Positions 5,391 through 60,966 of a stretch of 64,000 bases of DNA are shown in pieces. Within the stretch, counting starts at the first letter, position 1; every line of letters begins with the position of its first letter. The translations under genes and the position numbers were made by a program. A model generated the notes under the pieces. It saw only the letters and a program-made list of their open reading frames with translations, was not told the origin of the DNA and searched no databases. The DNA is from Hydrurus foetidus (Eukaryota): NCBI GenBank assembly GCA_900617105.1, contig UYFQ01000005.1, forward strand, positions 186,001 through 250,000, given 5' to 3'.

Positions 5391-5392
5391 GG

Positions 5393-26628: not shown

Positions 26629-27540
26629 TTGGTGCGTTTGACTTCCCTTACCGGCCTGTTGCGGCCCAGCCTGCTCGCAAGCCTTCTGGTGACGGGCTGT
26701 GCATCCACCTCGCCCCTGGCCCCGGTGGACGCCAGCACCGTACAGCCCAACGCAGATACTTTTCTGCAGCCCCTGATAGCGGGCCGCACTGCCCCGCACA
26801 TCCTGCTGCTGGGCGAGCAACACGACGCGCCACAGCACCAGCAACTTGAGCGCGATGTGGTTCGCCTGCTGTTGCGTCATGGCCGCTTGGCGGCACTGGC
26901 GCTCGAAATGGCAGAGCAAGGCAAATCCACCGCAAGCCTCAAAACCGATGCCAGCGACGCGCAAGTTCAAGCCGCCCTGGGTTGGAACGAAGCCGGTTGG
27001 CCGTGGGCAGCCTACGGCCCCGCCATCATGCTGGCCGTGCGTGAGGGTGTACCCGTGCTGGGGGCCAATTTGCCCCGCAACCAGCAACGCGACGCTATGA
27101 AAAATGCAGCACTCGACGCACGCCTTACCATCGCCAGCTTGCAAAAACAGCAAGATTTAATTGAAGCCAGCCACTGCGGCCTGCTGGCGGCAACCCAACT
27201 GCGCCCGATGACCCGTATCCAGATCGCCCGCGACAAAGCGATGGCCGATACCCTGGTGCAAGCCCTGAAGCGCACGCCCCCATTAACACCCGAGCAGCGC
27301 AGCTCAGGCCCGCCTTTGGTGCTGCTGTTGGCGGGTAGCGGCCACGCTGACCGGGCGCTGGGTGTGCCGCAGCACCTGCCACCTCAGGTCAAAGTTGTGT
27401 CGATCCGGTTGCAGGCCATGGGCACAGGCCCCACAGACGAGGCCCAGCCTTTCGATGCCGTCTGGCCTACCGTGGCCTTAGCGCCCAAAGACTACTGCGC
27501 AGAGCTGCGTGCCTCAATGCAGGCCCAGCCCAAGCCCTAA
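26629..27540 (+). CDS. ChaN-family lipoprotein
   Basis: Lipobox VTGC, LLGEQHD, LEM, Q.ARD..MA, AGSGH; start approximate. Confidence 0.8.
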   Translation: MVRLTSLTGLLRPSLLASLLVTGCASTSPLAPVDASTVQPNADTFLQPLIAGRTAPHILLLGEQHDAPQHQQLERDVVRLLLRHGRLAALALEMAEQGKSTASLKTDASDAQVQAALGWNEAGWPWAAYGPAIMLAVREGVPVLGANLPRNQQRDAMKNAALDARLTIASLQKQQDLIEASHCGLLAATQLRPMTRIQIARDKAMADTLVQALKRTPPLTPEQRSSGPPLVLLLAGSGHADRALGVPQHLPPQVKVVSIRLQAMGTGPTDEAQPFDAVWPTVALAPKDYCAELRASMQAQPKP

Positions 27541-28581
27541 CACCGCCGTCAGCACCACGACGGCGATAAAAACGGTCTCACCCAGCAGCATCGCCACCGG
27601 CTGCCAACCGAGCTTGAGCAGCTCTTCAAACGAGGTTTTGACACCTGCTGCGGCAATCGCTGTCACCAGCATCCAGCGCGAGGTGTCACCTGCCAGTTGA
27701 ATAATTTTGGGGCTGAACACCCCCACGCTGGCCAGCAGCACCAGCACGATGAACGCGAGCAAAAAGCCCGGTACCAGCGGCACGGCATCACGGGTGGTTT
27801 TGCTGTCGGCGTTCACGTCAAACTGCGCCTCGGGGTCGGTGTTGGCATGGTTGCGGTAGAGCATGGAAATCACGATCACCACCGGCATCAGCAGCATCAC
27901 GCGGAACAGCTTGACCACCGTGGCGGTGTCACCCGCCTCTGGCCCCAGCATCATCCCTGCCGCCACCACCTGTGCCACATCGTGGATGGTGCCACCCAAA
28001 AAGATGCCCGATTGTTCCGGCGTGGCCCCGATCACCTTGAGCACAAAGGGATAAAGCACCATCGCCACGGTGGAAAGCACCGTCACGCCCACCACGGTGA
28101 GCAGCGTGAAGCGCTCGTTTTCTTTGGTTTGCGGCAGCACCGATGCCACCGCCAGCGCCGCTGAAGCACCGCAAATCGCTACCGCTCCGCCTGACAACAG
28201 CCCTTCGTCACGCGGACGCTTGAAGCCGCGTGCCAACAAGGTGCCCACCACAATCGTGCAGCCTGTGGCGCACACGATCAGCAAAGCGGAGCCCAAACCC
28301 AGCTTCGCCACCTGCGACAGCGTGATGCGTGCGCCCAGCAAGGCCACGCCAAAGCGCAGCACTGTGCGGCCACAAAAGCCAATGCCGGGGCCGACTTGCG
28401 GGTTGTTCATCAAAAAATGAAACGCCAGCCCCATCAGCAAAGCATAGAGCAGCTGGGGACCACCGTAATGTTCAGAAACAAAGGTGGCCGCCAGCGCGAT
28501 GACGAGGCACACCAGCGTGCCAGGCAGGTTTTTGGCGACGAACGCCCGCCAGCGTTGCAGAGTGGATGTCACGGCCAGCAT
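27514..28581 (-). CDS. YeiH/putative sulfate exporter family (SuyZ/TauZ-like)
   Basis: LRFGVALLG, AICGASAA, GGTIHDVAQVV, VKLFRV; last gene of the suy operon. Confidence 0.85.
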   Translation of the reverse strand: MLAVTSTLQRWRAFVAKNLPGTLVCLVIALAATFVSEHYGGPQLLYALLMGLAFHFLMNNPQVGPGIGFCGRTVLRFGVALLGARITLSQVAKLGLGSALLIVCATGCTIVVGTLLARGFKRPRDEGLLSGGAVAICGASAALAVASVLPQTKENERFTLLTVVGVTVLSTVAMVLYPFVLKVIGATPEQSGIFLGGTIHDVAQVVAAGMMLGPEAGDTATVVKLFRVMLLMPVVIVISMLYRNHANTDPEAQFDVNADSKTTRDAVPLVPGFLLAFIVLVLLASVGVFSPKIIQLAGDTSRWMLVTAIAAAGVKTSFEELLKLGWQPVAMLLGETVFIAVVVLTAVLGLGLGLH

Positions 28582-28598
28582 TCGGTATCAGTTCACGG

Positions 28599-29606
28599 TC
28601 AAGCGGGGTTGGCGAGTGCTAGCAGCGGGGTCAAGGTGGCAGGGGGCAATTCCACGCCCTCGGCTTTGGCCTTGAGCGCCAGTGTGTTACGGCGGTAGCC
28701 AGGGATGCGCACGCCGTCGTCTGCGAGCATGGCGGCGATCAAGGCTTCCACACGCTCTTCGTAGACCGCCGTGCCACCCAGTGCTGAGGGGTCAATCACG
28801 ATGAAGGCTTGACCGATGCGGGGCACATTGCCCTCGTCCTCAAAGAAGGTATCGACCTCCAGACCAAAACGGGCGCCCGTGAGCGATGTCACCATCAACT
28901 CGATCATCAGGGCCAGCATCGCACCTTTGGAGCCCCCTGTAGAACCGAAAGGCAGCATCGAGCCTTCCATGCCCGCCTTGGGGTCGGTGGTGGGCTGGCC
29001 GTCTTTGTCGAGCGCCCATCCCAGGGGGATGGATTCGCCCTTTTTGGCGGCCATCATCAGCTTGCCACGCGCCACTTCCGAGAGTGACATGTCAATCATC
29101 ACCGGCTCATCGTTCGCGCGAGGGAAAGCGGCGGCCAGCGGGTTGGTGCCAAAAATCGCCCGCTTGCCACCTGCGGCGGGCATGGCAGCGGGGGAATTCC
29201 CCATGGCGATGCCCACCAAACCAGCTTGGGCCACCGCTTCGAGGTGGTAAGCCGCCACGCCGAAATGGTGGCTGTTGGTGACAGCGGCGATGGCGATGCC
29301 CGTCACTTTGGCCGCAGCAATGGCTTCTTGAATCGCCAAGGCACAGGCCGGGAAGGCAAAGCCCTCACCCGCGTCCACCAAAATGGCGCTGGGCTTTTGT
29401 ACCGCGATTTTGGGAACGGCCTGACCGTTGACACGGCCCGTGCGCAAGTGGCCGGTGTACATGGGGATGCGCGATACGCCGTGCGAGGCCAATCCTTGGG
29501 CATCGGCCGCTACCAATGCAGTAGCAGTGCAGTCGGCCTGCATGGGGGAAGCGCCTGCGTTTTGCAAGGCACGGCTGGCGAGGGCATGGATTTCTTGGAG
29601 GTTCAT
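28599..29606 (-). CDS. comC: Ldh_2 family oxidoreductase, likely (R)-sulfolactate dehydrogenase
   Basis: GLASHG, NSHHFG, FGTNP, SKG; sulfolactate context. Confidence 0.7.
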   Translation of the reverse strand: MNLQEIHALASRALQNAGASPMQADCTATALVAADAQGLASHGVSRIPMYTGHLRTGRVNGQAVPKIAVQKPSAILVDAGEGFAFPACALAIQEAIAAAKVTGIAIAAVTNSHHFGVAAYHLEAVAQAGLVGIAMGNSPAAMPAAGGKRAIFGTNPLAAAFPRANDEPVMIDMSLSEVARGKLMMAAKKGESIPLGWALDKDGQPTTDPKAGMEGSMLPFGSTGGSKGAMLALMIELMVTSLTGARFGLEVDTFFEDEGNVPRIGQAFIVIDPSALGGTAVYEERVEALIAAMLADDGVRIPGYRRNTLALKAKAEGVELPPATLTPLLALANPA

Positions 29607-29674: not shown

Positions 29675-30601
29675 TCAGCCCAAAGCCTTGGCGACTTCAG
29701 CCGCGATCATGCTGGAAACGCGCTCGTTGGACTCGGTCGTCACACCGGCCACATGCGGCGTCAGCACGACGTTGGGGCAATTCTCCCAAGGGCTGCCGGC
29801 CTTGAGCGGTTCAGGCTCAAACACATCAAACGCCGCACCGCCCAAATGCCCGGCACGTAAGGCATCGGCAATCGCCGCTTCGTCGGCAATATGGCCGCGA
29901 GCCGAATTGATGAGGATGGCACCGGCCTTCATCTGTGCCACGCGCTCTTTAGAGAGCAGGTTGCGGGTCTCAGGCGTGAGCGGCACATGCAGGCTGACCA
30001 CATCCGACTGCGCCAGCAAGGTGTCCAGCGTAGCGGGTGTGACACCGGTTTGTGCCCACACCGGCGCATCAGCGGCCAGCATCGGGTCATAGGCCACGAC
30101 GGTCATGCCCAGGCCTTGGGCCAAGCCTGCGGTCAAGCGGCCAATGCCACCAAAGCCAATCAAACCCAAGGTTTTACCAGCGATTTCACGGCCATTCGAG
30201 AGGCGAGCACGTGGCCATTTGCCACCTGCCACGGCAGCGCTGTCTTGGTACACGCCACGCAACAGCAGCATGGCGGTGCCGATGACGTATTCCGCCACGG
30301 CCAACGCGTTTGCACCCGTGGCAGGGATCACCTTCATGCCACGCGCTTCGCAGGCGGCTACGTCGATATTGTCCAGCCCCACGCCCAAGCGGCCAATCAC
30401 TGTGGCTTGTTGGCACGCCGCCAACAGCTCGCCACGCACCTGGGTGCGGTTGCGCACGATGACGGCATCGGCATCCGCCACCTCGCGCAGCAGGCGTGCT
30501 GTGTCGTCCACCAGTGCTGGCTCGTAAACCACGGTGTAGTGGGCTTGGAGTGACTCGACAGCTGAGGTATCCATGAATTCGGTGATGACAATTTTTTTCA
30601 T
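29675..30601 (-). CDS. slcC: D-2-hydroxyacid dehydrogenase, likely (S)-sulfolactate dehydrogenase
   Basis: ITEFMD, VRNRTQV, GRLGVGLDNID, GFGGIG, TPHVAG; context. Confidence 0.7.
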   Translation of the reverse strand: MKKIVITEFMDTSAVESLQAHYTVVYEPALVDDTARLLREVADADAVIVRNRTQVRGELLAACQQATVIGRLGVGLDNIDVAACEARGMKVIPATGANALAVAEYVIGTAMLLLRGVYQDSAAVAGGKWPRARLSNGREIAGKTLGLIGFGGIGRLTAGLAQGLGMTVVAYDPMLAADAPVWAQTGVTPATLDTLLAQSDVVSLHVPLTPETRNLLSKERVAQMKAGAILINSARGHIADEAAIADALRAGHLGGAAFDVFEPEPLKAGSPWENCPNVVLTPHVAGVTTESNERVSSMIAAEVAKALG

Positions 30602-30659: not shown

Positions 30660-31655
30660 TTACTCCGCCTTGATACGCCGTACTTTGATGATCTCACGCC
30701 AACGTGCAATGTCTTTTTGCACAAGGGATGCAAACTCAGCTGGCCCCAAACCTGTGACACTGAAGCCTAAGGCGTTGATACGCGACGCCACATCAGCCGT
30801 CCTGACAATGCGCAACGCCTCCAGCGCGATCCGGTCGATGATGGCTTTGGGGGTTCCTGCAGGCACCATCAGACCCGTCCAGTTTTCAAGTTCCATGTCG
30901 GCCATACCCTGCTCGGAGAAGGTAGGTACATCGGGCAACAGGGCGTGGCGCTTCACCGAGGTGATGGCCAAGGCCCGCAGCTTGCCGGATTTGATGAAGG
31001 CTACCGACTCGGGTAAGTTCGACACCACAAAGTCAATCTGACCACCCATCAAATCGTTCATGGACGGTGCACCGCCTTTGTAGGGAATATGGGTCACGTC
31101 CAACTTGGCATTGCCCGCCAGCAATTCCAGGCCCAAATGAGGCGGCGTACCGTTGCCAGACGACCCAGCACTCAGCGGTTGGGTTTTGGCCCGCTCCAAG
31201 AACTCCTTCAAGGTTTTAGCCGGATTGTTGACGCTAACCACCAACACCAGGGGACTGCTGGCCAGCTGCACAACGGGCACCAGGTTTTTATCAAGGCTGT
31301 AGGGGAGCGCACTGAACAAGGACTGGTTCACGGCGTGCGACAGCGTCACGGCCAACCAGGTGTAGCCATCTGGCGGCGACTTGGCCACCAAATCAGCGCC
31401 CAAGTTCGCACTGCCACCAGGTTTGTTGTCCACGATAACCGGTTGCTTCAACGATTCAGTGAGTTTTTGCCCCACCAAACGGGCCATTACATCGGTCAAT
31501 CCCCCGGCAGCGAAGGGCACGACGTAGCGGACAGAACGAGAAGGGTAATCACTGAAGGCAGCGTTCACGCCAGGGGACTGCGCCCAAGCAGGCAGCAAAA
31601 CGCCTGAACCTAACGTAGCCAGGGCGGCAGAAAAAGTACGGCGGGTAGCGGTCAT
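30660..31655 (-). CDS. Bug/TctC tripartite tricarboxylate transporter substrate-binding protein
   Basis: VPFAAGGLTD..AR, HIPYKGGAP, PDVPT. Confidence 0.9.
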   Translation of the reverse strand: MTATRRTFSAALATLGSGVLLPAWAQSPGVNAAFSDYPSRSVRYVVPFAAGGLTDVMARLVGQKLTESLKQPVIVDNKPGGSANLGADLVAKSPPDGYTWLAVTLSHAVNQSLFSALPYSLDKNLVPVVQLASSPLVLVVSVNNPAKTLKEFLERAKTQPLSAGSSGNGTPPHLGLELLAGNAKLDVTHIPYKGGAPSMNDLMGGQIDFVVSNLPESVAFIKSGKLRALAITSVKRHALLPDVPTFSEQGMADMELENWTGLMVPAGTPKAIIDRIALEALRIVRTADVASRINALGFSVTGLGPAEFASLVQKDIARWREIIKVRRIKAE

Positions 31656-31782: not shown

Positions 31783-32958
31783 TTAAGCGCTTTCAAACAA
31801 GCGCGTCATCACGAACTCACGGTGACCCAACGCCTCGGCTGCGGTGAAGCGGCCATTGATGGTCGCCATCATCACATCCAGCAGTTGGTCGCCGGTTTCG
31901 TCCATGGTGCGCTCGCGCTGGAGCAGACCAGAGCAATCCACATCGATGTGCTCGCTCATGGTGCGCACGGTGCGGGGGTTGGCGCAAACTTTGATCACGG
32001 GAACAATCGCGTTGCCAATCACGTTGCCTTGGCCTGTGGGGAAGAAATGCACCACAAAACCTGCCGCAGCGCACAAAGTCACCATCTCGGCAGCGGCCGA
32101 GGACGAGTCCATGAACCACAGGCCAGGATGACTCGGCATTTCAGCTTTGTCCAACACGCCGTCAACCGTGCATTTTTTGCCGATCTTCTGGATGTTGCCC
32201 AGTGCTTTTTCTTCGATGGTGGTCAAGCCGCCAGCAATATTGCCCTTGGTGGGCTGCGAATCAGACAAGTCGGTCGTCTTATTGCGCTCGATCATGGCCT
32301 GGTAGCGGTTGAACATGGCCATGAACTCGTCACGAACCTTGTCGGTTGCGCAACGCGCAGCGACGATCTTCTCGCCACCGGTGATCTCGGAAGTCTCACC
32401 GAACACCAGCGTCGTACCCAGACCGTGCAGTGTGTCAAAGGCATTGCCGCAGGTGGGGTTGGCACCGCAACCGGAGGTGGTGTCGGATTCGCCGCACTTG
32501 GTGGAAACCCACAGCTCAGAGATAGGGCACTCAACGCGGTGCTGCGAAGTCGCATGCTGAACGTACTGCTTGGCAACCTTGGACGCCTTCATGATGGTCT
32601 CATGGTCACCGTGGCCTTCAATGCCAAATCCCACTACCGGCTTGCCCGTTTTAGCGATGCCTTCAACGACTTTTTGTGTCCAAGCGTCTTCAATGCCGAT
32701 CACGATCACGGCTGACACGTTGGGGTTGCTGCCCGCACCAATCAAGGTTGCAAAGTGCAGATCCAGGTCGGCACCGAATTGCAAACGGCCATAGGGGTGC
32801 GGAATCGCCATCGTGCCTTTGATGTTGTGGGCAACGGCTTCGGCAGACGCGTTCGACAAATCGTCCAACGGCAAAATGATCACGTGGTTGCGCACGCCCA
32901 CACGGCCGTTTTCGCGGCGATAGCCCCAGAAGGTGGAGTCTTTGGTCAGAAATGACAT
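31783..32958 (-). CDS. suyB: (R)-sulfolactate sulfo-lyase beta subunit (UxaA family)
   Basis: [38 protein letters not shown]. Confidence 0.88.
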
Positions 32959-32972: not shown

Positions 32973-33254
32973 TTACCAGCGTTTGGTTTTGATGTTGTGG
33001 ACATGGGCGTGCTCGCCCACCTTGATGGCGGCAACCACCTTGCCGATGTCAACGCCGTATTTGATAACGGTGTCGCCAACAGCCAAGGCCTTCATGGCCA
33101 CTTTGTGGCCCAAAGGAATATCAGCCGCGCACGGAATTTGAATCGTGCGGTTTTCATCAAGAATCAGCGCAGTGAGCTGTTGACCAGCTTTAACGCCTTC
33201 TGTGACCACAACAGCGACGCTGTCATTAGGGTCATGCAATACACAATGGATCAT
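32973..33254 (-). CDS. suyA: (R)-sulfolactate sulfo-lyase alpha subunit (SAF domain)
   Basis: [26 protein letters not shown]. Confidence 0.88.
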
Positions 33255-33291
33255 GAGGTCTCCTGGGTTGCTAGGTTGAAATTCAACTATA

Positions 33292-33303
33292 TCATCTATA
33301 TGA
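33292..33303. promoter_or_regulatory. Possible GntR/HutC-type operator upstream of suyA
   Basis: Near-palindrome TCATCTATATGA. Confidence 0.4.
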
Positions 33304-33306
33304 ATT

Positions 33307-33561
33307 TCAAACAAGCATTTGATGAGACTCACCCTGTATGTTTTGCCCCACCAAGCGAGATACGTAATCAGCATCCTGCGTATCCACAATAGATACGCGC
33401 AACTCGGCGGGTTTTTGGGCGATGCGTTCAATCCGCAGAACAGGGCGTCCCGGCGTCAACCCGAGCAAAGCCGCACTTTCTTTGGTTGCCGCCACTGCTT
33501 GCACGCGCTCTTCTGCCCCCACCACGGTCACGCCGAAAGCCGACTGGTACAGCTCGTAAAT
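33307..33561 (-). pseudogene. 3' remnant of a GntR/UTRA regulator
   Basis: IYELYQSAFGVTVVGAEERV..PAELRVSIVDT..DYVSRLVGQ parallels the C-term of 42819-43529; no HTH. Confidence 0.85.
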
Positions 33562-34563
33562 TCAGGGAACCAAGATCACCTTGGCCGAAGCCGCTTTGCC
33601 CTGATCTAAATCCTGAAACGCCTGCGCACCTTGACTCATTGGGCGGACATCCACCCAAGCCAAATCACCAAATGCACCGCGGTGGATGGCTGCAACGGTG
33701 GCACGCAGGTCGGCCGTGGTGTAGGTGTAGGTGCCCAGCAATGTGATTTCCGCCAGCGTCAAGCGGCGCATATCAATTTCGCTGGCCCAGTCTTGCAAGC
33801 CAACATGCATGACGACACCACCTGCTTTGACCGAGGCTATGGCAGTGACGCGTGTGATTTTTGAGCCCACAGCGTCCATCACATAGTCATAACTGTTTTC
33901 GTCTGGACTGCTGTCTTTGGGGTTGTAGGTCTTGACCTTGGCATGCTGCTCTAGCTGTTCGCGGCGCAAGGGATTGACTTCGGCCACCGTCAAATCTTGG
34001 CAACCATAGTTCTTGAGGAGCAAAGCCGCGAGCATGCCAATCGCGCCGCCGCCCAAAATGAGGACGCGGCACTCTTGAACAGGGCGAACCAAAACACGCA
34101 TGGATAAGTTGATCGCATGCAGAGCAGTTGCTGCGGGTTCGGTCACAGCAGCGTGAATCGGAGACATGTCTTGCGGCATATCGATCAACGATGCAGCGGG
34201 GATAGACATTTGCTCGGCAAACGCGCCAGGCCGCGTCATACCCACCATGGTGCGGTTAGAACACAAATTGTTACGCCCTTGAACACAAAAATCACAGATC
34301 CCGCAGGTAATCAATGGGTTACCCGTCACCCGTGTGCCCTTGGCGTAGAAAGGCGATGAGCTCTCGAGTACGGTGCCGCAAAATTCATGGCCCAGCACGA
34401 GTCCCGGCTTGCGCCTTGGGTCGTGTCCATGGTAGGCGTGCATGTCGGAACCGCAGATGCCGACCGCTTCAATTTTGAGGATTACTTCACCTTTTTCGAG
34501 CAGTGGATCGGGACGATCGAGTAACTGCACTTCGTTAGGTTGGGTGTAGACCAAGGCTTTCAT
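33562..34563 (-). CDS. hpsP: Zn-dependent dehydrogenase, DHPS 2-dehydrogenase type
   Basis: GICGSD, GHE, CxxCxxC, GGGAIG; in hpsN-hpsO operon. Confidence 0.75.
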   Translation of the reverse strand: MKALVYTQPNEVQLLDRPDPLLEKGEVILKIEAVGICGSDMHAYHGHDPRRKPGLVLGHEFCGTVLESSSPFYAKGTRVTGNPLITCGICDFCVQGRNNLCSNRTMVGMTRPGAFAEQMSIPAASLIDMPQDMSPIHAAVTEPAATALHAINLSMRVLVRPVQECRVLILGGGAIGMLAALLLKNYGCQDLTVAEVNPLRREQLEQHAKVKTYNPKDSSPDENSYDYVMDAVGSKITRVTAIASVKAGGVVMHVGLQDWASEIDMRRLTLAEITLLGTYTYTTADLRATVAAIHRGAFGDLAWVDVRPMSQGAQAFQDLDQGKAASAKVILVP

Positions 34564-36636: not shown

Positions 36637-37953
<1,317 letters not shown>

Positions 37954-39079: not shown

Positions 39080-39154
39080 GAGATTCTCCGTTTCGACAAA
39101 AGAAGGGGTTAATAAGCTAAGAGAGGTTGGTGTTCGATGGGCGAGGGTCAGTGG

Positions 39155-39952: not shown

Positions 39953-39975
39953 GATGACTCATTGTGGTTATGGAT

Positions 39976-47957: not shown

Positions 47958-48074
47958 AACAGATGCGCCTGGTTTGTTAAAACAAAAAGAAACGAAAACC
48001 AATGTCTGCAACAAACTCGTGTGACAGTATTGTTCGGTCAGTCTACGCTGATTGCTGATGAAACTCCCCACCAG

Positions 48075-48192
48075 GGTTATTCCTGCAAGGGTCGGTGGGG
48101 CTACCCCTTGTGCAACACACCTCGCATGGTGGAGACGGCGGTGCACCTCACAGATTACGTCTTCCCCCGCCTGCCGGTGCGCAAGCTGCACG
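48075..48192 (+). pseudogene. Relic of an IS91/ISCR-like transposase Zn-binding region
   Basis: SCKGR..PLCNTPRMVETAVHLTDYVFPRLPVR resembles SCKxRxxCPSC..RM...A.HL...V.P..PVRQW. Confidence 0.6.
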
Positions 48193-52592: not shown

Positions 52593-53494
52593 GCTGAGCG
52601 TCCGATCCGCTTGAGGTAAAAGCCCGTGACCACCAGCGAGAGCAAGAACATGCACACCGCCAATGTAGAACCATAGCCCACATCGAGGTAATCGATGGTG
52701 GTTTTGTGGATGAGCATCGACAGGGTTTCGGTCGCATTGCCCGGTCCGCCTTTGGTCATGGTGTAAGGAATATCAAAGGTTTGCAGCGCAGTAATGGTGC
52801 GAAAAATCATTGCTACGATGATGCTGGGCATCAGCATAGGGATGGTGATTTGCCAAAACTGTTGCCAGCGGCTCGCACCGTCCACCTCCGCAGCTTCATA
52901 GAGCGTTTTGGGGATCATTTGCAAACCGGCCAACAAAATCAGCGCCATGAAAGACGATGTTTTCCAGATGATGGTGATGCAAATCGCCGCAAACGCCCAG
53001 TTGGGTTTAAGCAACCACATGGTGGCGGATTCCCCACCCAGGCGACGCACCACGTCGTTGATGACACCGTATTCGGTGTGGAAGAACCACGCAAAAATCA
53101 ACCCACAAAAGCTCAAAGGCAAGGCCCAGGGCAGCAGCAGCGCCAAGCGCACCGGCCACTTGCGCTTGAACGGCAGGTTCGCCAACATGGCCAACCCCAA
53201 ACCCACCACCAAGGCACCGGGGACGGTGATGAAGGTAATGAGCAGGGTGTTTTTGGTGGCGTTCCAAAAATCAGCGTCATTGAAGACATCGGCGTAGTTG
53301 CTCCAGCCCACAAACTTGACAGCACCGGAGCCGCCCGACAGGCGCAGGTCAAAAAAGCTGTTGAAAATCAACTTGCCTATCGGGTAGGCCACGATCATCG
53401 CCAGCAAAATGAAGGCCGGAGCCAGCAGCAAAAAGCCCAGTGTCTTTTCAGACGGGTCACGCAAGGTGTCACGCAGTTTGGCAAACACAGGCAT
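52589..53494 (-). CDS. Carbohydrate ABC permease
   Basis: LYEAAEVDGA, GGPGNAT. Confidence 0.9.
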   Translation of the reverse strand: MPVFAKLRDTLRDPSEKTLGFLLLAPAFILLAMIVAYPIGKLIFNSFFDLRLSGGSGAVKFVGWSNYADVFNDADFWNATKNTLLITFITVPGALVVGLGLAMLANLPFKRKWPVRLALLLPWALPLSFCGLIFAWFFHTEYGVINDVVRRLGGESATMWLLKPNWAFAAICITIIWKTSSFMALILLAGLQMIPKTLYEAAEVDGASRWQQFWQITIPMLMPSIIVAMIFRTITALQTFDIPYTMTKGGPGNATETLSMLIHKTTIDYLDVGYGSTLAVCMFLLSLVVTGFYLKRIGRSA

Positions 53495-53498: not shown

Positions 53499-54761
53499 TC
53501 AGCGCATGATGCGGTTCAAGCGGCTTTCGATCTCGCCCACGCCTTCAGCTGCTGTTTTGGTACGCGCCAGCACGGCGCTGGTGGTGGTGCGAATCACGTC
53601 GCTGACCTCTCCGTACCGGGCGCTGATGGGGCGGCTTTGCCCTGCCACCACCACAGCAGCGGCATCTTTGAACCATGGCACTTCTTTCACTACTTCAGGG
53701 TCGCTATAAACGCTTTGCACGGTGGGCAACAGCGAGCCTTCTTTGGCCAAAAACTTAGACGATGCGGGCGAAGAGATGAACTGCACGATTTTGGCCGCTG
53801 CGGCCTTGTTTTTACTGAACGCACTCACCGCCCACTGCCAGCCCCCCACACAGGTGGCGCTCTTGCCCCCGGCCATGGCGGGCAAGGGCATCACGCCGAC
53901 TTTGCCTTTGACGTTGCTGTCAGCATCGTCTTTGAAGCGGTCCCACGCAAAACCCCAGTTGATGCCGAACACCACTTGACCGGCTTTGAACTCGTTCACG
54001 GTGTCTGGTGTTTTGACTTCGGCTATGTTCTTTTTGGCCACACCCTGGTCCACCAAATTCAGCCACATGTCCATGCCTTTGGTGGCAGCTGCTTTGTCGA
54101 GTGTCATCTTGCCGGCGGCATCGTTGAAGGCTTTGCCTTGGCTCCAGTAGGGCAGCATGAAGGTGCATACCGCGCCTTCAATAGGCGCGCCTTGGAAGCT
54201 CAGGCCTTGCAGGTTGGGATTCTTTTCACCGGCCATGATGGTTTTGGAGGCAGCGGCCAGCTCATCCCAAGTTTTAGGTTCCTTGAGCGCGTATTTTTCG
54301 AGCAGGTCTTTGCGGTAGTACATGAACATCGCATCGGCAAACGCCGGCATGGCGGCGAGCTTGCCGTTCACCACGTTGGCCGTGCTGTACACCGGCAAAT
54401 AAGGGGCCAATGCGGCCGGGCCACCGAGGTAAGCGTCCAGTGGCTCCAGCCACCCAGCAGCCATGTACTGCGCAGGGTTCACGATATCGATCATGTACAC
54501 GTCGATGGTTTCATCTTTGGCGTTCAGCACAGTACTGAGGTACTGGCGTTGCAGCTCCGACGTGGCACCGCCCGTTTCCATGTCGATTTTGACGCTGGGG
54601 TTTTGTTTTTGGTACTCGTCAAACAGCTTTCGCATCAGGTCAGGGCGCTGATTTTGCCCACCCGAAAAAATGCGAACCGTGGTTTGCTGGGCCAAGGCGA
54701 TGTGGCTGGCCGAGGCGCAAGCCAGGGCAGCGAGAACTTGAAGGACTGTACGTTTTTGCAT
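53499..54761 (-). CDS. Carbohydrate ABC substrate-binding protein
   Basis: Signal peptide, YYRKDLL, PKTWDEL, GGWQWAV. Confidence 0.9.
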   Translation of the reverse strand: MQKRTVLQVLAALACASASHIALAQQTTVRIFSGGQNQRPDLMRKLFDEYQKQNPSVKIDMETGGATSELQRQYLSTVLNAKDETIDVYMIDIVNPAQYMAAGWLEPLDAYLGGPAALAPYLPVYSTANVVNGKLAAMPAFADAMFMYYRKDLLEKYALKEPKTWDELAAASKTIMAGEKNPNLQGLSFQGAPIEGAVCTFMLPYWSQGKAFNDAAGKMTLDKAAATKGMDMWLNLVDQGVAKKNIAEVKTPDTVNEFKAGQVVFGINWGFAWDRFKDDADSNVKGKVGVMPLPAMAGGKSATCVGGWQWAVSAFSKNKAAAAKIVQFISSPASSKFLAKEGSLLPTVQSVYSDPEVVKEVPWFKDAAAVVVAGQSRPISARYGEVSDVIRTTTSAVLARTKTAAEGVGEIESRLNRIMR

Positions 54762-54837: not shown

Positions 54838-55914
54838 TCAGTGCAACGCCGCACCGGTTTGGCTGTCAAACAAATGCATATGTGCTTTGCTCAGGTAAAT
54901 CGGCACGGTGGTGCCAGGGGCCAGGTTGAAGCTGGCCGCACAGCGCGCCACCAACTCCACCTCACCCAAGCTGAACGTGACCAGCGTCTCGGCTCCCAGT
55001 GGCTCACTCAGCACAACTTTGGCGGGCAACTCAACCGCACCCAACGTGCCGGTGGGCGAAAGACCAATGTTCTCGGGGCGAATGCCAAAGGTCATGGTCT
55101 TGGGCGGCGCTGCGGGGATCAGACCTGTGGGCGCATCGAAAGCAGCAGAACCCACAGTGATGCGCGGCCCTTGTACGTTACAAGCTACTAAATTCATAGC
55201 AGGTGAGCCTGTAAAACCAGCTACAAACAGCGCTGCAGGCGTGTTGTAGATGTCGAAAGGTGTGGCGTACTGCATTTTGTTTCCCGCGCTCAGCACGGCG
55301 ATACGGTCAGCCAGCGTCATGGCTTCCACCTGATCGTGCGTCACGTAGATGATGGTGGCACCGAGGCGCTGGTGCAGTTTTTTGATCTCGGTGCGCATCT
55401 CACCACGCAGTTGGGCATCGAGGTTGGAAAGCGGTTCGTCAAACAAAAAAACCTTGGGTTGGCGCACGATGGCGCGGCCAATCGCCACCCGTTGGCGTTG
55501 CCCGCCCGACAGCGCACCGGGTTTGCGCTCCAGCATGTGGTCAATGCGCAGCAGCTTGGCCGCATCCATCACGCGGCGCTTGATTTCAGCCTCATCCGTG
55601 CCGCGAAGGCGCAGACCGAAGGCCATGTTGTCGTACAGACTTTTGTGCGGGTACAGCGCATAGTCTTGGAACACCATCGCAATGTCGCGGTTACGTGGGG
55701 GTTCGTCGTTCACGCGCTTTCCCCCGATCAGCACGTCACCGCTGCTGATCGTTTCCAGCCCTGCGATCATGCGCAGCAGCGTGGATTTGCCACAGCCCGA
55801 GGGGCCGACAAATACCACAAATTCGCCATCTTTGATCTGCAAATCAATGCCGTGGATAACTTTGGTCTTGCCGTCATACGATTTGGCAACCTGCTTGAGT
55901 TCTACGTTCGCCAT
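54838..55914 (-). CDS. Carbohydrate ABC ATPase (MalK/UgpC type)
   Basis: GPSGCGKS, LSGGQRQR, FDEPLSNLD, TOBE tail. Confidence 0.93.
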   Translation of the reverse strand: MANVELKQVAKSYDGKTKVIHGIDLQIKDGEFVVFVGPSGCGKSTLLRMIAGLETISSGDVLIGGKRVNDEPPRNRDIAMVFQDYALYPHKSLYDNMAFGLRLRGTDEAEIKRRVMDAAKLLRIDHMLERKPGALSGGQRQRVAIGRAIVRQPKVFLFDEPLSNLDAQLRGEMRTEIKKLHQRLGATIIYVTHDQVEAMTLADRIAVLSAGNKMQYATPFDIYNTPAALFVAGFTGSPAMNLVACNVQGPRITVGSAAFDAPTGLIPAAPPKTMTFGIRPENIGLSPTGTLGAVELPAKVVLSEPLGAETLVTFSLGEVELVARCAASFNLAPGTTVPIYLSKAHMHLFDSQTGAALH

Positions 55915-55956: not shown

Positions 55957-56757
55957 TCAATAGCCCTGGCTGTGAATTTGGATGTCTTGAGAGCGAATGG
56001 CAGACAAGGTGCTGGCGCAGTTGCGCATCAGCAAGCCCAAATCTGACGCGCAGGCCAGAAAATCGAACCCCATCGCGCGGTAAGTGGCCACCGCTTCGGG
56101 TGTGCCGCCTACTGTGCCTATGGGCTTGCCCACAGCGTGGACACGGCGCACGGCATCGTGCGTGACGGCCAGCACGTCAGGGTGCATCAGGTTGCCCACA
56201 TGGCCCATGGCACCGCTCAGGTCACCCGGCCCGATAAACAAGGCATCCACACCGGGAACACTGGCGATCTCTTCGAGACGCTCCAGCGCGTAAGGGGATT
56301 CAATCTGCACGATCACGCCGATGCCGTCGTTGGCGACTTTAAAATAGTCTTTCACCGTACCAAAGCGCGAGCCCCGGCTCATGGCGGCCATGCCGCGCAC
56401 GCCCTGCGGTGCATATTTCGTAGCAGCTACCGCACGTCTGGCCTCGTCAGCGTCTTGAATGAAGGGGAACAACACCGTCTGCGCACCGGCATCGAGCACG
56501 CGCTTGACCATCACCGTGTCGTTCCACGGCACGCGGGTCACGGGCACCATCGGCGTACCGGCGATGGCTTGCAGCACATGCACAACATCCATCTGGTCCA
56601 GCGGTGTGTGCTCCATATCAACCACAGCCCAGTCAAAACCCGCGCAACCCACCGCTTCGGCAATCACCGGGCTGGCCGACATGATCCAGGTACCTACGGG
56701 GTAGCCGCCGGGCAAGTCGGTGCGGGCGAGCAGAGAAAAGAAAGGGTTTTTCATCAA
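55957..56757 (-). CDS. HpcH/HpaI aldolase (candidate KDSG aldolase)
   Basis: DMEH, TRVPWND, KRVLDAGA, QIES, FIGPGDLS. Confidence 0.88.
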   Translation of the reverse strand: MMKNPFFSLLARTDLPGGYPVGTWIMSASPVIAEAVGCAGFDWAVVDMEHTPLDQMDVVHVLQAIAGTPMVPVTRVPWNDTVMVKRVLDAGAQTVLFPFIQDADEARRAVAATKYAPQGVRGMAAMSRGSRFGTVKDYFKVANDGIGVIVQIESPYALERLEEIASVPGVDALFIGPGDLSGAMGHVGNLMHPDVLAVTHDAVRRVHAVGKPIGTVGGTPEAVATYRAMGFDFLACASDLGLLMRNCASTLSAIRSQDIQIHSQGY

Positions 56758-58487
56758 AATATCACCGGTTCAGGAAGTTGTTCAGGGCTTTGCAAAAAGT
56801 CGAAATCGCAGCCTTCGTGGGCTTGCGTCACGTGCTGCTGGTACAGGCGCACATAGCCACGTGGGGTGATGGCGGCGGGCTTGGGCAGTGCCGTACGGCG
56901 CTGCGCCAATTCGTCGTCGCTGACGTGCAGGTGCAGCAAGCGGCGCGCTAAATCCAGCTCAATCACGTCGCCATTGCGCACCAGCGCCAAGCAACCGCCC
57001 ACTGCGCTTTCAGGCGAGATATGCAGCACGCAGGTGCCGTAGTGGGTGCCACTCATGCGGGCATCGGAGAGGCGCAGCATGTCGCGCACACCGGCTTGCA
57101 GCAGCTTTTGAGGAATCGGCAGGTTGCCCCACTCGGGCATCCCCGGCCCGCCTACGGGGCCAGCGTTGCGCAGCACCAGCACGGTGTTGGCATCGCAGTC
57201 CAACTCGGGGTCAGCCATTGCTGCCAGCATAGCGGGCGGATTGTCAAACACCAGGGCACGGCCTTGGTGCTGTAGCAAGCTGGGCGTGGCGGCGCTGGGT
57301 TTGATGACGGCCCCTTCGGGGGCCAGATTGCCATGTAGCACGGCCAGTGCGGTCTGTGCCACGGGCGTGTCCAGCGGGCGAATGACGGTATCGTCATGCA
57401 CTTGGGCTGTGGCAATTTGCTCACCCAGGGTGATGCCGCTGATGGTCAACTCGTCCAATGACAGGTGTTCACTGATGACTTTCATCAGTGCGGGCAGGCC
57501 ACCGGCGTAGTAGAAGTCTTCCATCAACTTGTCGCCGTTGGGGAACAGGTTGGCGATGACGGGCACCTTGCGGCCCATCGCGTCCAGATCACTCAAATTC
57601 AATGCCACACCCGCCCGATGAGCCATCGCGATGAGGTGAACGCAGGCGTTGGTGGATCCTCCCAAGGCCATTTGCACAGCCAGTGCGTTCTGAAAAGAAC
57701 CACGGGTCAGGATGCGTTTCGGGGTTAAATCTTCCCAGACCATTTCCACAATCCGCTGTCCACAATCTGTCGCCATGCGGGTGTGGGCCGAATCCATCGC
57801 TGGGATCGAGCTGGCACCAGACAGCGTCAAGCCCAACGCTTCAACGATGCTGGTCATGGTGGAGGCCGTGCCCATGGTGTTGCAGGTGCCGGGCGCGCGG
57901 GTCATGCGGCCTTCCAGCGATTGCAGCTCTTTGGCGTCTATTTTTCCGGCCTGGAATTCATCCCAAAACATGCGGGTGTGGGTACCAGCACCGACAGTTT
58001 GCGAGACACCGTTTTTGACATACCGGTCGTTCAGCATGAAACCTGCGGGGCAAAACAGCATGGGAATGCCCGCACTGCACGCGCCCATTACCGTGCCAGG
58101 CGTGGTTTTGTCACAGCCCGCCAGAATCACCACACCGTCGCAGGGCAGGCTTCGCAGCAGCTCTTCAACTTCCATCGCCAAAAAGTTGCGGTACAGCATG
58201 GTGGTGGGCTTAACCATCACTTCGCCTAAGCTCATTGCGGGCAGCTCTACCGGAAAAGCACCGGCCAGCAAGATGCCGCGTTTTACCGCTTCGGCGCGCT
58301 CGCGCAAGTGGGAATGGCAGGGCGACAAGTCGCTCCAGGTGTTCAGCACAGCGATGAGAGGGCGTTCCATCACGTCCTCTCGCCGGATGCCCTGCTGCTG
58401 CATACGTTGACGGTGCGCAAAGCCCCGCATACCCGCGTCTGAGAACCAGAGGCGGCTGCGCAATTCAGACAAAGTTTTTTTAATCAC
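56754..58487 (-). CDS. IlvD/Edd sugar-acid dehydratase (candidate sulfogluconate dehydratase)
   Basis: PCH, GCDKT, GTCNTMGTAS, GGSTN, GMPE, SDARMSGT; start uncertain. Confidence 0.88.
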   Translation of the reverse strand: MIKKTLSELRSRLWFSDAGMRGFAHRQRMQQQGIRREDVMERPLIAVLNTWSDLSPCHSHLRERAEAVKRGILLAGAFPVELPAMSLGEVMVKPTTMLYRNFLAMEVEELLRSLPCDGVVILAGCDKTTPGTVMGACSAGIPMLFCPAGFMLNDRYVKNGVSQTVGAGTHTRMFWDEFQAGKIDAKELQSLEGRMTRAPGTCNTMGTASTMTSIVEALGLTLSGASSIPAMDSAHTRMATDCGQRIVEMVWEDLTPKRILTRGSFQNALAVQMALGGSTNACVHLIAMAHRAGVALNLSDLDAMGRKVPVIANLFPNGDKLMEDFYYAGGLPALMKVISEHLSLDELTISGITLGEQIATAQVHDDTVIRPLDTPVAQTALAVLHGNLAPEGAVIKPSAATPSLLQHQGRALVFDNPPAMLAAMADPELDCDANTVLVLRNAGPVGGPGMPEWGNLPIPQKLLQAGVRDMLRLSDARMSGTHYGTCVLHISPESAVGGCLALVRNGDVIELDLARRLLHLHVSDDELAQRRTALPKPAAITPRGYVRLYQQHVTQAHEGCDFDFLQSPEQLPEPVIF

Positions 58488-58510: not shown

Positions 58511-58526
58511 GTGTTACCGCTAACAT
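58511..58526. promoter_or_regulatory. LacI-family (gluconate repressor type) operator
   Basis: GTGTTA-CCGC-TAACAT matches ATGTTA-N4-TAACAT between divergent genes. Confidence 0.75.
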
Positions 58527-58552: not shown

Positions 58553-59608
58553 GTGACAAACCCTAACCTTCTCAAAAAATTATTCAACAGCCGTGCCACA
58601 GGTCGAAGCACCTTGGTGGACGTGGCGGCCATCGCAGGTGTCACCACCATGACGATCTCGCGCTACTTGCGCGAACCTGAGCGCGTATCGCCTCTTACCT
58701 CCGCCAAAATCAAGGAAGCGCTTGACTCCACCGGCTACACGCCGAACAAGCAGGCGGGAGGTCTGGCCAGCGGCAAATCCCCGGTGATTGCAGCGGTGAT
58801 CCCCAATGTGGGCAACACATTGTTTGCAGAAACAGTGCAAGCGCTGTGTGACGTGTTCCACGGCTCGGGCTACGAGCTGCTCTTGTCTGCCACCAATTAC
58901 GACTTGGAACGCGAAGAAGAGCAGGTGCGTGCCATGCTGGGCTGGCTGCCTGCCGCGCTCATCATCACCGGGCGACGCCACACCGATGCCACCTTGCAAA
59001 TGATGCGCAACGCCCGTGACCGAGGCATGCCTGTGGTCGAAATCTGGGACAAAACAACCCGTCCGTCTGAGTTCATCCAGGTGGGGTTCAACCACCAAGA
59101 GGCCGGTGTCCTCATGGCCAAACACCTGATAGCGCGCGGCTACACAGATTTGACCTATGTGGACAGCGGCGTGCCTGACGATTTCCGTGCCCATGAACGC
59201 GGCCTGAGCTTTGTACGCCATGCCAAAGCGGCAGGCTGCACCGCCACCACGGTAATCGCCCCACGCGGCGAACCTATGGCAGCCGGACGTGCCACCCTGC
59301 GCACCCTGTACATGACAGGTCTGCCTCGGGCCTTGGCTTTTGCCAACGACCACTTGGCGGTGGGGGCTTATCTCCATGCCCAATCGGTAGGCTTGGCGGT
59401 GCCCGACACCGTAGCCATGCTGGGTTTTGGCGATATTGCCCTCGCCACCGAACTGGGCTCAGGCATCAGCAGCGTTGCCACCCAGCGGCACCAGATCGGG
59501 TTCGCTACGGCAACGCGCATTTTGCAAGCGCTGAGTGGCACAACGGCCAACACAGCCAACCTGCCCCCCGAGTTACGCCCCGAGGTGATTCACCGCTCCA
59601 GCACCTGA
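58553..59608 (+). CDS. LacI-family regulator (GntR/IdnR subgroup)
   Basis: TLVDVAAIAGVTTMTISRYL, GYTPN; start approximate. Confidence 0.88.
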   Translation: MTNPNLLKKLFNSRATGRSTLVDVAAIAGVTTMTISRYLREPERVSPLTSAKIKEALDSTGYTPNKQAGGLASGKSPVIAAVIPNVGNTLFAETVQALCDVFHGSGYELLLSATNYDLEREEEQVRAMLGWLPAALIITGRRHTDATLQMMRNARDRGMPVVEIWDKTTRPSEFIQVGFNHQEAGVLMAKHLIARGYTDLTYVDSGVPDDFRAHERGLSFVRHAKAAGCTATTVIAPRGEPMAAGRATLRTLYMTGLPRALAFANDHLAVGAYLHAQSVGLAVPDTVAMLGFGDIALATELGSGISSVATQRHQIGFATATRILQALSGTTANTANLPPELRPEVIHRSST

Positions 59609-59732
59609 GCAGCCAGCACGCTAGCCGTCACGCCTGTTATGAATTTGCAACACTTCACCGAAATTTGAAGACTGAACCGGTGACTTCGGGTTAACCCGCC
59701 TACACGTCGCCGCATTTAGCGCGAGACTTCAC

Positions 59733-59764
59733 ACCGTTAAATGTTAGCGATAACATTTAACGGT
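59733..59764. promoter_or_regulatory. Second operator within a perfect 14-bp-arm palindrome upstream of the porin
   Basis: ACCGTTAAATGTTA-GCGA-TAACATTTAACGGT. Confidence 0.75.
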
Positions 59765-59838
59765 CACGCGGTACACAAAATTTCTCTGTCGAAATTTTGT
59801 GTACCGCCAAGTTTCAATTCACCTTTCGGAGATACAAC

Positions 59839-60966
59839 ATGTTTCAACGCAAATGGGTGTCAGCCGCTGTGCTGACACTGCTCAGCGGCGCAGCCGCAGC
59901 ACAGTCCAGCGTCACGATTTACGGGCGCGTGGACACCGGTATCGTTACCGGTAAATTTGACTCCACGGGCAACCGCACTTTGGTGCAAAGCGGGCCATAT
60001 ACCGCATCCCGCCTGGGCTTTCGGGGCACCGAAGACCTGGGTGGTGGGCTGCGTGCCACCTTTGGCTTGGAAGCGGGTCTGAACATCGACACCGGCACCG
60101 GTGGGGCCACCGGCGGCGGCATTAACTTCAACCGTGGCTCGCAGGTGGCACTGGCCAGCGACAGCTGGGGTGAATTCGCTTTGGGCAAGATGTACATGCC
60201 CACCTTTTGGGTGTACCTAGGGTCTGACCCTGGCATTGGCGGGTTGGGCTTGGGCTCAATGGGCGCGTCCATCATGCAGCAGCACACCGCACTGACGGGC
60301 AAAACCGGTTGGGGTGGTTTTTACGACAACACCGTGCGCTACCGCACCCCCAACATGTCAGGACTGAAAGGTGAAATTGCCTACAGCTTGGGTTCAGAAA
60401 ACGCGAGCAACAGCGCTGCCAAAAACGATGGCAAAACCGCTGGCTTAAACGTGCAGTACGAGCAAGGCGCGATGTACTTGGGCGGCGCTTACCAAAAATT
60501 CACCGCAGCCATCGCAGGTACCACCGCTGGCACCTTCATCGGGGATGCGAACCAAACCACCTGGATGCTGGCTGGCCGCTACAAAATGGCGCCTGCCACC
60601 GTGGGCGTGAACTATGGCCGCACCAAAAATTCTACCGCCTGCCAAGCCACAGGCAATGCCGTGGGCTGCGACATGAGCACGTTCGCCATCAATTCGCGCT
60701 TTGACCTGACGGGCCAAAGTTCGATGGACGTGAGTTGGGCACAGCTCAAAGCCGACTCGGGCAGCTTGAGTGGCGCCAAGGCCAACACCTTGGCCATCGG
60801 CTACACCTACTACCTCTCTAAGCGCACTTGGATTTACACCCAGGCCGTGAAGATGAACAACAACAACCTTTCCAAATGGGGTCTGAACGGCGGTTTGGGC
60901 GTTGCGAACGACACCAAAGGTCTCAGTCCACAAGCCTTCTCCATCGGCGTGTTGCACATGTTCTAA
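59839..60966 (+). CDS. Gram-negative (betaproteobacterial) porin
   Basis: AQSSVTIYG, SRLGFRGTEDLGGGL, YYLSKRT, C-terminal Phe. Confidence 0.92.
   Translation: MFQRKWVSAAVLTLLSGAAAAQSSVTIYGRVDTGIVTGKFDSTGNRTLVQSGPYTASRLGFRGTEDLGGGLRATFGLEAGLNIDTGTGGATGGGINFNRGSQVALASDSWGEFALGKMYMPTFWVYLGSDPGIGGLGLGSMGASIMQQHTALTGKTGWGGFYDNTVRYRTPNMSGLKGEIAYSLGSENASNSAAKNDGKTAGLNVQYEQGAMYLGGAYQKFTAAIAGTTAGTFIGDANQTTWMLAGRYKMAPATVGVNYGRTKNSTACQATGNAVGCDMSTFAINSRFDLTGQSSMDVSWAQLKADSGSLSGAKANTLAIGYTYYLSKRTWIYTQAVKMNNNNLSKWGLNGGLGVANDTKGLSPQAFSIGVLHMF

Follow-up and report, generated by a model that had tools for sequence, protein, structure and literature searches.

A sulfoquinovose Entner–Doudoroff cluster joined to a sulfolactate sulfo-lyase module: a probable route to sulfoquinovose mineralisation in one cell

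We analysed a 64,000-nucleotide stretch of contig UYFQ01000005.1 (positions 186,001 to 250,000 of the forward strand; Hydrurus foetidus assembly GCA_900617105.1), which we call the window and number from its first letter. Open reading frame (ORF) calling and family scans show that it bears two clusters, extending from the stop codon of yeiH at 27514 to that of a porin gene at 60966. The original prediction had drawn the same limits and had proposed that a sulfoglycolytic Entner–Doudoroff (sulfo-ED) cluster for sulfoquinovose (SQ) and an hps/slc/suy cluster about 5 kb away together mineralise SQ; the spacing, from the gntR start at 43529 to the SQ-dehydrogenase stop at 48896, is indeed about 5.4 kb. 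From 58.5 kb downward the minus strand carries in order an IlvD/Edd dehydratase, an HpcH aldolase, a sugar ATP-binding cassette (ABC) system, a Gfo/Idh/MocA protein, an aldose epimerase and a short-chain dehydrogenase/reductase (SDR); a LacI gene divergent from the dehydratase and a porin complete this sulfo-ED end of the locus (48.9-61.0 kb). Past the spacer, the same strand continues with gntR and, beyond a divergent LacI gene, an SsuA-type ABC importer, hpsN, hpsO, a SerC-like aminotransferase and hpsP, followed by suyA, suyB, tctC, slcC, comC and yeiH. Positions 31200-51100 are spanned by a single Logan contig (run X1) with zero differences and even depth, X1 being possibly the source sample and so not independent. 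The features of the sulfo-ED end are the following.

48896..49690, minus strand: SQ 1-dehydrogenase, SDR (9GWU, 3.8e-74)
49743..50600, minus strand: aldose 1-epimerase, likely SQ mutarotase (PF01263)
50600..51724, minus strand: GH188 NAD+-dependent sulfoquinovosidase, SqgA-like (8QC3, 1.8e-97; 8QC2, 3.9e-94)
51762..53494, minus strand: two ABC permeases (65-72% identity to permeases of Rhizobiaceae sulfo-ED clusters)
53499..54761, minus strand: SmoF-like binding protein for SQ or SQ-glycerol, likely start 54761 (7NBZ, 1.2e-135; next match 1e-60)
54838..55914, minus strand: ABC ATPase (family scans)
55957..56757, minus strand: HpcH-family aldolase for 2-keto-3,6-dideoxy-6-sulfogluconate (PF03328; 52% to its counterpart in canonical Rhizobium/Shinella sulfo-ED clusters)
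56754..58487, minus strand: IlvD/Edd-family sulfogluconate dehydratase, likely start 58487 (PF00920; 61-63% to canonical sulfo-ED dehydratases)
58512..58525, no strand assigned: LacI operator TGTTASCGNTAACA ahead of the dehydratase (of the 97 loci over which its recurrence was counted, 44 have it with no more than one mismatch)
58553..59608, plus strand: predicted LacI regulator for the sulfo-ED operon (most related loci also have it divergent from the dehydratase)
59742..59755, no strand assigned: second copy of TGTTASCGNTAACA, before the porin (also in G001 and G002)
59839..60966, plus strand: Gram-negative porin, likely co-regulated with the sulfo-ED operon (PF13609; operator upstream)

The sulfo-ED identity first proposed for this cluster is borne out by sulfonate residues kept in three entry proteins (equivalents counted by hand from printed alignments) and by the dehydratase, aldolase and SDR, which share 52-63% identity with canonical sulfo-ED cluster genes. 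In the GH188 protein, for which no unrelated (non-GH188) Protein Data Bank (PDB) match is better than 1e-26, the equivalents of Lys107, Tyr136, Arg166, Lys172, Glu189, His193 and His321 are retained, including the Arg166/Lys172 sulfonate site and the catalytic positions (reference residues from PMC10755693; papers are cited throughout by such numbers and on the strength of extracts from them). The best PDB match of the SQ dehydrogenase is the P. putida SQ dehydrogenase 9GWU; equivalents of Asp99, Arg101, Ser147, Arg152, Arg154, Tyr160, Lys164 and Gln198 are retained and Asp45 is lost (reference PMC12133307), and the second match, 4LVU, lacks both Arg152 and Arg154. The SmoF-like protein keeps Gln12, Ser43, Gly166, Thr220, Asp67, Asp113, Trp276 and Arg345, with His13 changed to Asn (reference PMC8940949). 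The window holds an SDR with the sulfonate pocket and Ser-Tyr-Lys, the PF00920 and PF03328 pair and a sulfoquinovosidase of family GH188, and no in-cluster sulfolactaldehyde (SLA) dehydrogenase (PF00171) or reductase. The two plasmid matches of the dehydratase that we inspected (61-63%) belong to standard sulfo-ED clusters that also carry a lactonase, GH31, TauE and GabD. [quoted passage not shown]

At residues 38-43 of the SQ dehydrogenase, an FCGT(K/R) motif, which most related loci keep, stands in place of the NAD-determining Asp45 of the P. putida enzyme and may reflect a preference for NADP+. Related loci were collected by a GH188 protein scan that confirmed 326 relatives, of which the best 80 loci, all titled Betaproteobacteria or kin, were retained, and 50 of these 80 (mostly the longer ones) were given whole-genome searches; loci are labelled L### and genomes G###. 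Glycerol-3-phosphate dehydrogenase-like genes occur in 20 of the 80 loci (L019, L026, L031, L123 and others), some with an inositol-monophosphatase-like or FGGY kinase gene, and likely serve the glycerol released from SQ-glycerol.

The module at the other end of the locus has these features.

27514..28581, minus strand: yeiH/SuyZ-like membrane protein, proposed sulfite/sulfate exporter (PF03601, 3.7e-65; TIGR00698, 131 bits for a cut-off of 232.6; 42-48% to the suyB neighbour in S. mexicanum and P. versutus)
28599..29606, minus strand: predicted comC-like (R)-sulfolactate dehydrogenase (PF02615; best NCBIfam match L-sulfolactate dehydrogenase, NF040650, 230 bits for a cut-off of 500; 43% to the S. 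mexicanum suy-cluster comC-like gene)
29675..30601, minus strand: predicted slcC-like (S)-sulfolactate dehydrogenase, likely start ATG 30601 (PF02826/PF00389; 56% to the S. mexicanum suy-cluster slcC-like gene)
30660..31655, minus strand: TctC-family solute receptor, candidate sulfolactate binder (PF03401; 54% to the C. pinatubonensis TctC gene that follows suyB)
31783..32958, minus strand: suyB, sulfolactate sulfo-lyase large subunit (PF04295/PF20629; 84% to the UxaA gene that C. pinatubonensis HN-2 has after hpsRNOUP; next UxaA tier about 40%)
32973..33254, minus strand: suyA, 93 residues, likely start 33254 (61% to the small C. pinatubonensis UxaA gene that precedes suyB; no Pfam match)
33281..33305, minus strand: palindromic element upstream of suyA, candidate GntR operator/promoter (kept with one change in L001 and L002)
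42819..43529, minus strand: predicted HutC/GntR regulator of the suy module, a mosaic gene (PF00392 and PF07702)

Counterparts of suyA, suyB, tctC and the hps genes lie in the hpsRNOUP-suyAB cluster of C. pinatubonensis HN-2, the strain used for comparison in place of the characterised JMP134, with identities of 48% for HpsR, 79% for HpsN, 64% for HpsO, 58% for HpsP, 61% for SuyA, 84% for SuyB and 54% for TctC. SuyA and SuyB are a split UxaA-type pair like that of HN-2, family and synteny fit a putative SlcC and ComC beside them, and the SlcC/ComC-SuyAB module of the original prediction is supported at that level. Against the PDB, SuyB found no SuyB structure and galactarate dehydratase as its sole match. 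Of eight proteins looked up by exact sequence, one was matched. YeiH is plausible as a sulfite exporter of the SuyZ type. SlcC, ComC and YeiH share 56%, 43% and 42% identity with predicted genes downstream of suyB in S. mexicanum, a species listed as a carrier of homologues of all three (PMC12421959).

Between the two modules lie the hps block and the spacer, as follows.

33340..33561, minus strand: gntR 3′ remnant of about 75 codons, startless, read as a scar of hps-block insertion (in frame as a GntR C-terminus; about 65% nucleotide identity to the gntR 3′ end of L001/L002)
33562..34563, minus strand: hpsP, Zn-dependent dehydrogenase of 2,3-dihydroxypropane-1-sulfonate (DHPS) (best PDB match 8WWD, 2.9e-83; 58% to the C. 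pinatubonensis hps-cluster gene)
34631..35830, minus strand: SerC-like class V aminotransferase, candidate cysteate/sulfopyruvate transaminase (PF00266; NF003764 above cut-off)
35867..36631, minus strand: hpsO, SDR DHPS dehydrogenase (8WWF, 2.2e-76; 64% to C. pinatubonensis hpsO)
36637..37950, minus strand: hpsN, (R)-DHPS 3-dehydrogenase (8V35, 5.8e-232; 79% to C. pinatubonensis HpsN)
38027..41561, minus strand: SsuA/NMT1-type ABC importer with DHPS as its likely substrate, made up of a binding protein, an ATPase and two permeases (family scans; the same set adjoins hpsN in L139, L144-L146, L148 and P. versutus)
41597..41610, minus strand: LacI-type palindrome upstream of the hps operon (palindrome search)
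41761..42768, plus strand: LacI regulator, HpsR-like (48% to the C. pinatubonensis hps LacI)
43687..48191, no strand assigned: spacer genes for glutathione S-transferase, DoxX, LysR, a methyl-accepting chemotaxis protein and a Cache protein (not at this position in close relatives)

The closest relatives, L001 and L002 (GH188 identity 92-95%), have a compact order with neither spacer nor hps block, and a single contig of run X6 reads across both places: it omits 9968 and 5375 bases of the window and has 505 and 921 other letters there instead. The full gntR gene is 87-90% identical in nucleotides to that of L001 over its first 180 nt and 53-74% afterwards, and an in-frame 3′ remnant of a gntR gene lies between hpsP and suyA. 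Window SuyB is 97% identical to that of G086, as against only 92% to that of L001; the hps block is 73-91% identical to G086, a genome in which a GH188 orthologue was not found. The hps block looks to have been inserted later: a gntR remnant adjoins it, close relatives lack it, and it has a LacI and an operator of its own. We infer that recombination at gntR/suyA brought in a DHPS module from a C3-sulfonate specialist. By these comparisons the window reads as a mosaic, a compact ancestor plus inserts. Within the block, the SerC-like gene between hpsO and hpsP has a match at E<=1e-110 in one of 251 family genomes, in the same context, and a class III aminotransferase occupies its slot in L025 and L123. 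The aminotransferase suggests that cysteate or cysteinolate feeds the SuyAB sink; a Bilophila HpsN oxidises L-cysteinolate (PMC12814064).

The association of the two outer modules recurs. SuyB was present at 75% identity or more in 40 of the 50 sulfo-ED relatives searched, and in at least 21 of these 40 suyB lies no further than 16 kb from the GH188 gene on the same contig, broken contigs making this a lower bound. The suy module directly follows the SQ dehydrogenase on one strand in L001, L002, L127 and L128 (sulfo-ED, then gntR-suyAB-tctC-slcC-comC-yeiH), lies upstream of the dehydratase in L003, L034, L070 and L120, and across LacI in L028, L060 and L073. Carriers not labelled as metagenome-assembled genomes are Comamonadaceae bacterium G21597-S1, Piscinibacter defluvii SH-1 and Polaromonas sp. 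P2-4. Of all 80 loci, 15 have suy, slc or com within 10 kb, and among those 15 there are no hpsN genes in the fetched flank, one GabD-type gene and one lactonase. Among long loci, in-cluster GabD occurs in 1 of 12 with suy/slc/com linkage and 6 of 25 without, numbers too small to claim exclusion. G035 has a pair of sulfo-ED clusters (L120, L047): GabD and lactonase genes lie within one of them, and the other is joined to suyAB-slcC-comC.

Co-occurrence across Comamonadaceae relatives, a check proposed with the original prediction, was found when 251 genomes were drawn evenly from the family of G001. GH188 orthologues were counted in 24 (four further matches at 44-46% were left uncounted), SuyB in 36 and both in 20, so that SuyB accompanies GH188 in 20 of 24 genomes vs 16 of 227 without it (Fisher odds ratio 66, p 3e-16, uncorrected for kinship). 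Excluding the nine GH188-positive genomes already sampled, the comparison is 12 of 15 vs 16 of 227. A 51-row GH188 tree needs 14 changes to account for the linked state (shuffled mean 16.8; 55 of 500 shuffles as low), and linkage is therefore not confined to one clade. Linkage of sulfo-ED with SuyB exceeds chance.

Taken as a whole, the locus joins sulfo-ED to a sulfolactate sulfo-lyase set, and one cell likely converts SQ to two pyruvate plus sulfite, with the SLA step carried out by a GabD-type enzyme in trans and not by HpsN; we give this a probability of roughly 60%. SQ or SQ-glycerol would enter through the porin and the SmoF-type ABC system, and GH188 would free SQ from the glycoside. 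Epimerase, SQ dehydrogenase, dehydratase and aldolase would then yield pyruvate and (S)-SLA, the lactone being opened spontaneously or by a lactonase in trans. A trans-encoded dehydrogenase would oxidise (S)-SLA to (S)-sulfolactate, which SlcC and ComC would invert via sulfopyruvate to (R)-sulfolactate; SuyAB would cleave this to pyruvate and sulfite, and YeiH would export the sulfite. Since an (S)-sulfolactate intermediate needs the SlcC/ComC pair, its retention fits this scheme. The block of hpsNOP, ABC importer and aminotransferase would be a later add-on that scavenges DHPS, and perhaps amino-sulfonates too, from outside the cell and passes them on to the same SuyAB sink. Of the original one-cell scheme, sulfo-ED, SlcC/ComC-SuyAB, the conserved linkage and the likely net reaction are kept, and the HpsN step is replaced. 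What we observe are genes, residues, linkage and the marks of a mosaic history; the activities, the flux, the co-induction and the trans enzyme are our reading of them.

For the SLA step, the in-cluster dehydrogenases of relatives (8 of 80 loci) are GabD-type, and GabD-like genes with at least 57% identity to one of them occur in 36 of 50 relatives, G003, G094 and G242 among them; supply in trans is therefore favoured. RlGabD is specific for D-SLA, the (S) enantiomer (PMC10599462), and an unlinked GabD-2 oxidises SLA in R. pomeroyi (PMC11131964). A GabD-type dehydrogenase encoded outside the cluster thus likely fills the gap. Each of G001, G002, G094, G242 and G039 has 12-18 PF00171 matches, so no single candidate can be picked; aldehyde dehydrogenases adjoining some linked clusters were set aside as members of other families (piperideine-6-carboxylate and methylmalonate-semialdehyde dehydrogenases). 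Several observations weigh against our scheme. Neither of the two closest relatives has an intact GabD match: G001 has only a chimeric GabD ORF without about 108 N-terminal residues, and G002, like G039, has nothing above 41%; 12 of the 40 SuyB-positive genomes lack a GabD match at E<=1e-130. ComC and YeiH score below their curated cut-offs, so that their roles rest on family and synteny. The cluster has no lactonase (SGL, PF08450), nor do 14 of the 15 loci with suy/slc/com within 10 kb; SGL homologues at 49-53% lie elsewhere in five of five relatives, and lactonase-less variants are discussed in PMC12421959 and PMC13372026. Finally, no sulfo-ED LacI operator was found upstream of suyA, of gntR or of an aldehyde dehydrogenase, whether in the window, in G001 or in G002. 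An SLA enzyme of a new kind is possible by analogy with Paracoccus Merri, which makes sulfolactate with no GabD/SlaB homologue according to the extract of PMC12421959. The G001 chimera (L132, 5923-7569) joins a UxaA-like N-terminus, judged by eye, in frame to the N-truncated GabD and is either a deletion or an assembly error.

The original prediction assigned the oxidation of the aldolase's SLA to HpsN. The window protein is a genuine orthologue, retaining the equivalents of His126, Glu318, His319, Asp352 and His411 at 127, 319, 320, 353 and 412; its gene lies in the same locus, hps genes are joined to sulfo-ED also in G018, G019 and G040, and the premise that HpsN works on the aldehyde holds, since the C. 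pinatubonensis enzyme takes free SLA about 12-fold better than (R)-DHPS (PMC11382572). However, that 79%-identical orthologue prefers (R)-DHPS 10^6-fold, has an (R)-sulfolactate product complex and consumes 48% of racemic SLA, which its authors assign to (R)-SLA, an enantiomer deduced from half-use of the racemate rather than directly measured (PMC11382572), whereas the sulfo-ED aldolase yields (S)-SLA (PMC12421959). An R-specific HpsN acting on SLA would yield (R)-sulfolactate, and SlcC/ComC would therefore be superfluous. Distribution points the same way: of the 40 SuyB-positive genomes, 15 have a close HpsN, 5 one of 56-62% type, 9 only a 46-53% paralogue and 11 no match (E<=1e-80), and close HpsN is found in 5 of 12 GabD-negative vs 10 of 28 GabD-positive genomes and so does not track the absence of GabD. 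G001, G003, G094 and G242, where sulfo-ED is fused to suyAB-slcC-comC, show only a 35-36% HisD match and no HpsP match, in assemblies that may be incomplete. With the hps block apparently a later insertion under its own LacI, direct oxidation by HpsN is very improbable, and the protein appears to be an accessory DHPS enzyme, not the missing link. A detour through DHPS would start with reduction of (S)-SLA to (S)-DHPS, which HpsP/HpsO would invert and HpsN would then oxidise to (R)-sulfolactate. It would make use of the position of hpsN, hpsO and hpsP directly upstream of suyA on the same strand, and it draws on the C. pinatubonensis racemase model cited in PMC9594981 and on HpsP, which connects (S)-DHPS and SLA (PMC11131964). 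Yet Roseobacteraceae HpsO and HpsP oxidise C3 and not C2, so that the centre is not inverted (PMC11131964), and the detour is impossible in G001, G002, G003, G094 and G242, where no HpsP match was found; we hold it to be quite improbable.

Regulation bears on a further alternative, namely that the modules are separately controlled, that sulfolactate or DHPS is excreted during growth on SQ and used later or only when supplied by a neighbour, and that clustering reflects a shared niche. Operator TGTTASCGNTAACA stands in the window only before dehydratase and porin (at most one mismatch), and the palindromes before suyA and before the hps operon differ from it; the three modules therefore look separately controlled, with three distinct regulators and operators and none shared. 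Of 27 genomes, 22 have exact matches; G001 and G002 have them before dehydratase and porin and nowhere else. The extra sites in these 27 genomes fall in G035 at a second sulfo-ED cluster, in G003 at a PhyH/TctC locus and in G005 at an enolase-family/TctC locus, with none at an aldehyde dehydrogenase. The same alternative gains from the TctC receptor for an external solute within the suy operon, from the 10 of 50 sulfo-ED relatives without a SuyB match and from known sulfo-ED strains, which excrete sulfolactate (PMC13436972, PMC9594981). Against it stand the same-strand fusions of L001, L002, L127 and L128 and the TauE-type exporter, which is absent from the window and found in 1 of 80 related loci although both inspected canonical clusters have one. 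Intracellular sulfolactate could itself induce the GntR-controlled operon, as coupling of the modules would need. On balance such independence is unlikely. The sugar cluster might also take another substrate, either sulfofucose or, non-phosphorylatively, a plain aldose such as L-arabinose or D-xylose, and the automatic labels speak for this (L-arabinonate dehydratase, 869.5 bits for a cut-off of 882; D-xylose dehydrogenase, 297 for 400). The arabinose/xylose reading was rejected since canonical sulfo-ED dehydratases receive the identical 'araD' label and sulfonate-binding residues are retained in GH188, SQ dehydrogenase and SmoF; the sulfofucose reading was rejected since that pathway's dehydratase is of the enolase superfamily (PF13378/PF02746; PMC12421959) and the window enzyme is PF00920. 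A different substrate is hardly credible.

A one-mismatch copy of the hps-operon palindrome at 31782-31795 overlaps the suyB stop upstream of tctC-slcC-comC-yeiH; it could place these four genes under the hps LacI, or be chance. A promoter and terminator scan of 27000-46500 gave no excess vs shuffles. In G018 (L136, 3806-8418), molybdopterin, 4Fe-4S and DmsC genes directly follow comC, joining sulfite oxidation to the cluster; these genes are SoeABC-like, and a SoeA-like sulfite-oxidising subunit is present in three of five relatives. Elsewhere in the window, 1501-6088 holds consecutive genes for SpoIIE/HATPase, protoglobin-STAS, BLUF and GTP cyclohydrolase I, possibly a light/oxygen-sensing partner-switch cluster; a CcdB-family ORF lies at 8700-9017; a copper-handling set (PCuAC, DUF1775, TonB receptor, DUF2946) lies at 11694-15617; and 16000-22000 is a low-GC island (43-48% vs about 59%) with an HNH endonuclease, DUF5677, an IS110 transposase and unknown ORFs, with a PIN ORF at its edge.

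Within one bacterial group the two halves are as a rule inherited together (40 of 50 sulfo-ED genomes). If the pathway runs, it would give twice the pyruvate per SQ and release sulfite directly in sulfate-poor waters, bypassing the two-species relay. More tentatively, and with more doubt than confidence, freshwater Comamonadaceae and kin could form a large guild, overlooked so far, whose single cells mineralise SQ (20 of 251 genomes carry both halves, often in one fused locus), and in which lineages lacking both GabD and HpsN use a new SLA enzyme to fill the same gap as in Merri. Comamonadaceae are among the 13C-SQ-labelled taxa of a 2026 stable isotope probing study (PMC13372026). The open-access literature yielded no paper on Comamonadaceae sulfo-ED/suy linkage, although supplementary tables of PMC10755693, PMC13372026 and PMC10599462 may list such clusters; sulfoglycolytic SQ mineralisation by a single organism is undemonstrated according to the extract of a 2026 review (PMC13436972).

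With canonical sulfo-ED the window shares the SDR SQ dehydrogenase, PF00920 dehydratase, PF03328 aldolase, ABC uptake and LacI, at 52-72% identity to Rhizobiaceae cluster genes. It differs in having GH188 instead of GH31, in lacking an in-cluster lactonase, GabD/SlaB and TauE, in an SQ dehydrogenase without Asp45 and in its linkage to suyAB-slcC-comC, whereas the known strains excrete sulfolactate. Closest in logic is Paracoccus wurundjeri Merri (PMC12421959), which likewise combines ED cleavage to pyruvate and (S)-SLA with SlcC, ComC and SuyAB and has no in-cluster SLA dehydrogenase; its substrate, however, is the rare sulfofucose, handled by an enolase-family dehydratase, whereas the window's markers point to abundant SQ and its glycosides, and its tandem was shown by growth, proteomics and enzymes while that of the window is predicted from genes. 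Compared with hpsRNOUP-suyAB of C. pinatubonensis, a species that does not use SQ according to the extract of PMC9594981, the window has an ABC importer and the SerC-like aminotransferase in place of the major facilitator HpsU, with slcC, comC and yeiH downstream. One-genome SQ mineralisation via SuyAB has been predicted for Ensifer sp. HO-A22, with sulfo-ED and DHPS clusters (PMC10599462), and the same idea for other lineages, Thermotogae and Chloroflexi, with sulfo-TAL and SuyAB (PMC9594981); unlike those predictions, ours comes with recurrent physical linkage across Comamonadaceae/Sphaerotilaceae and with co-occurrence counts. [quoted passage not shown] The modules are individually known.

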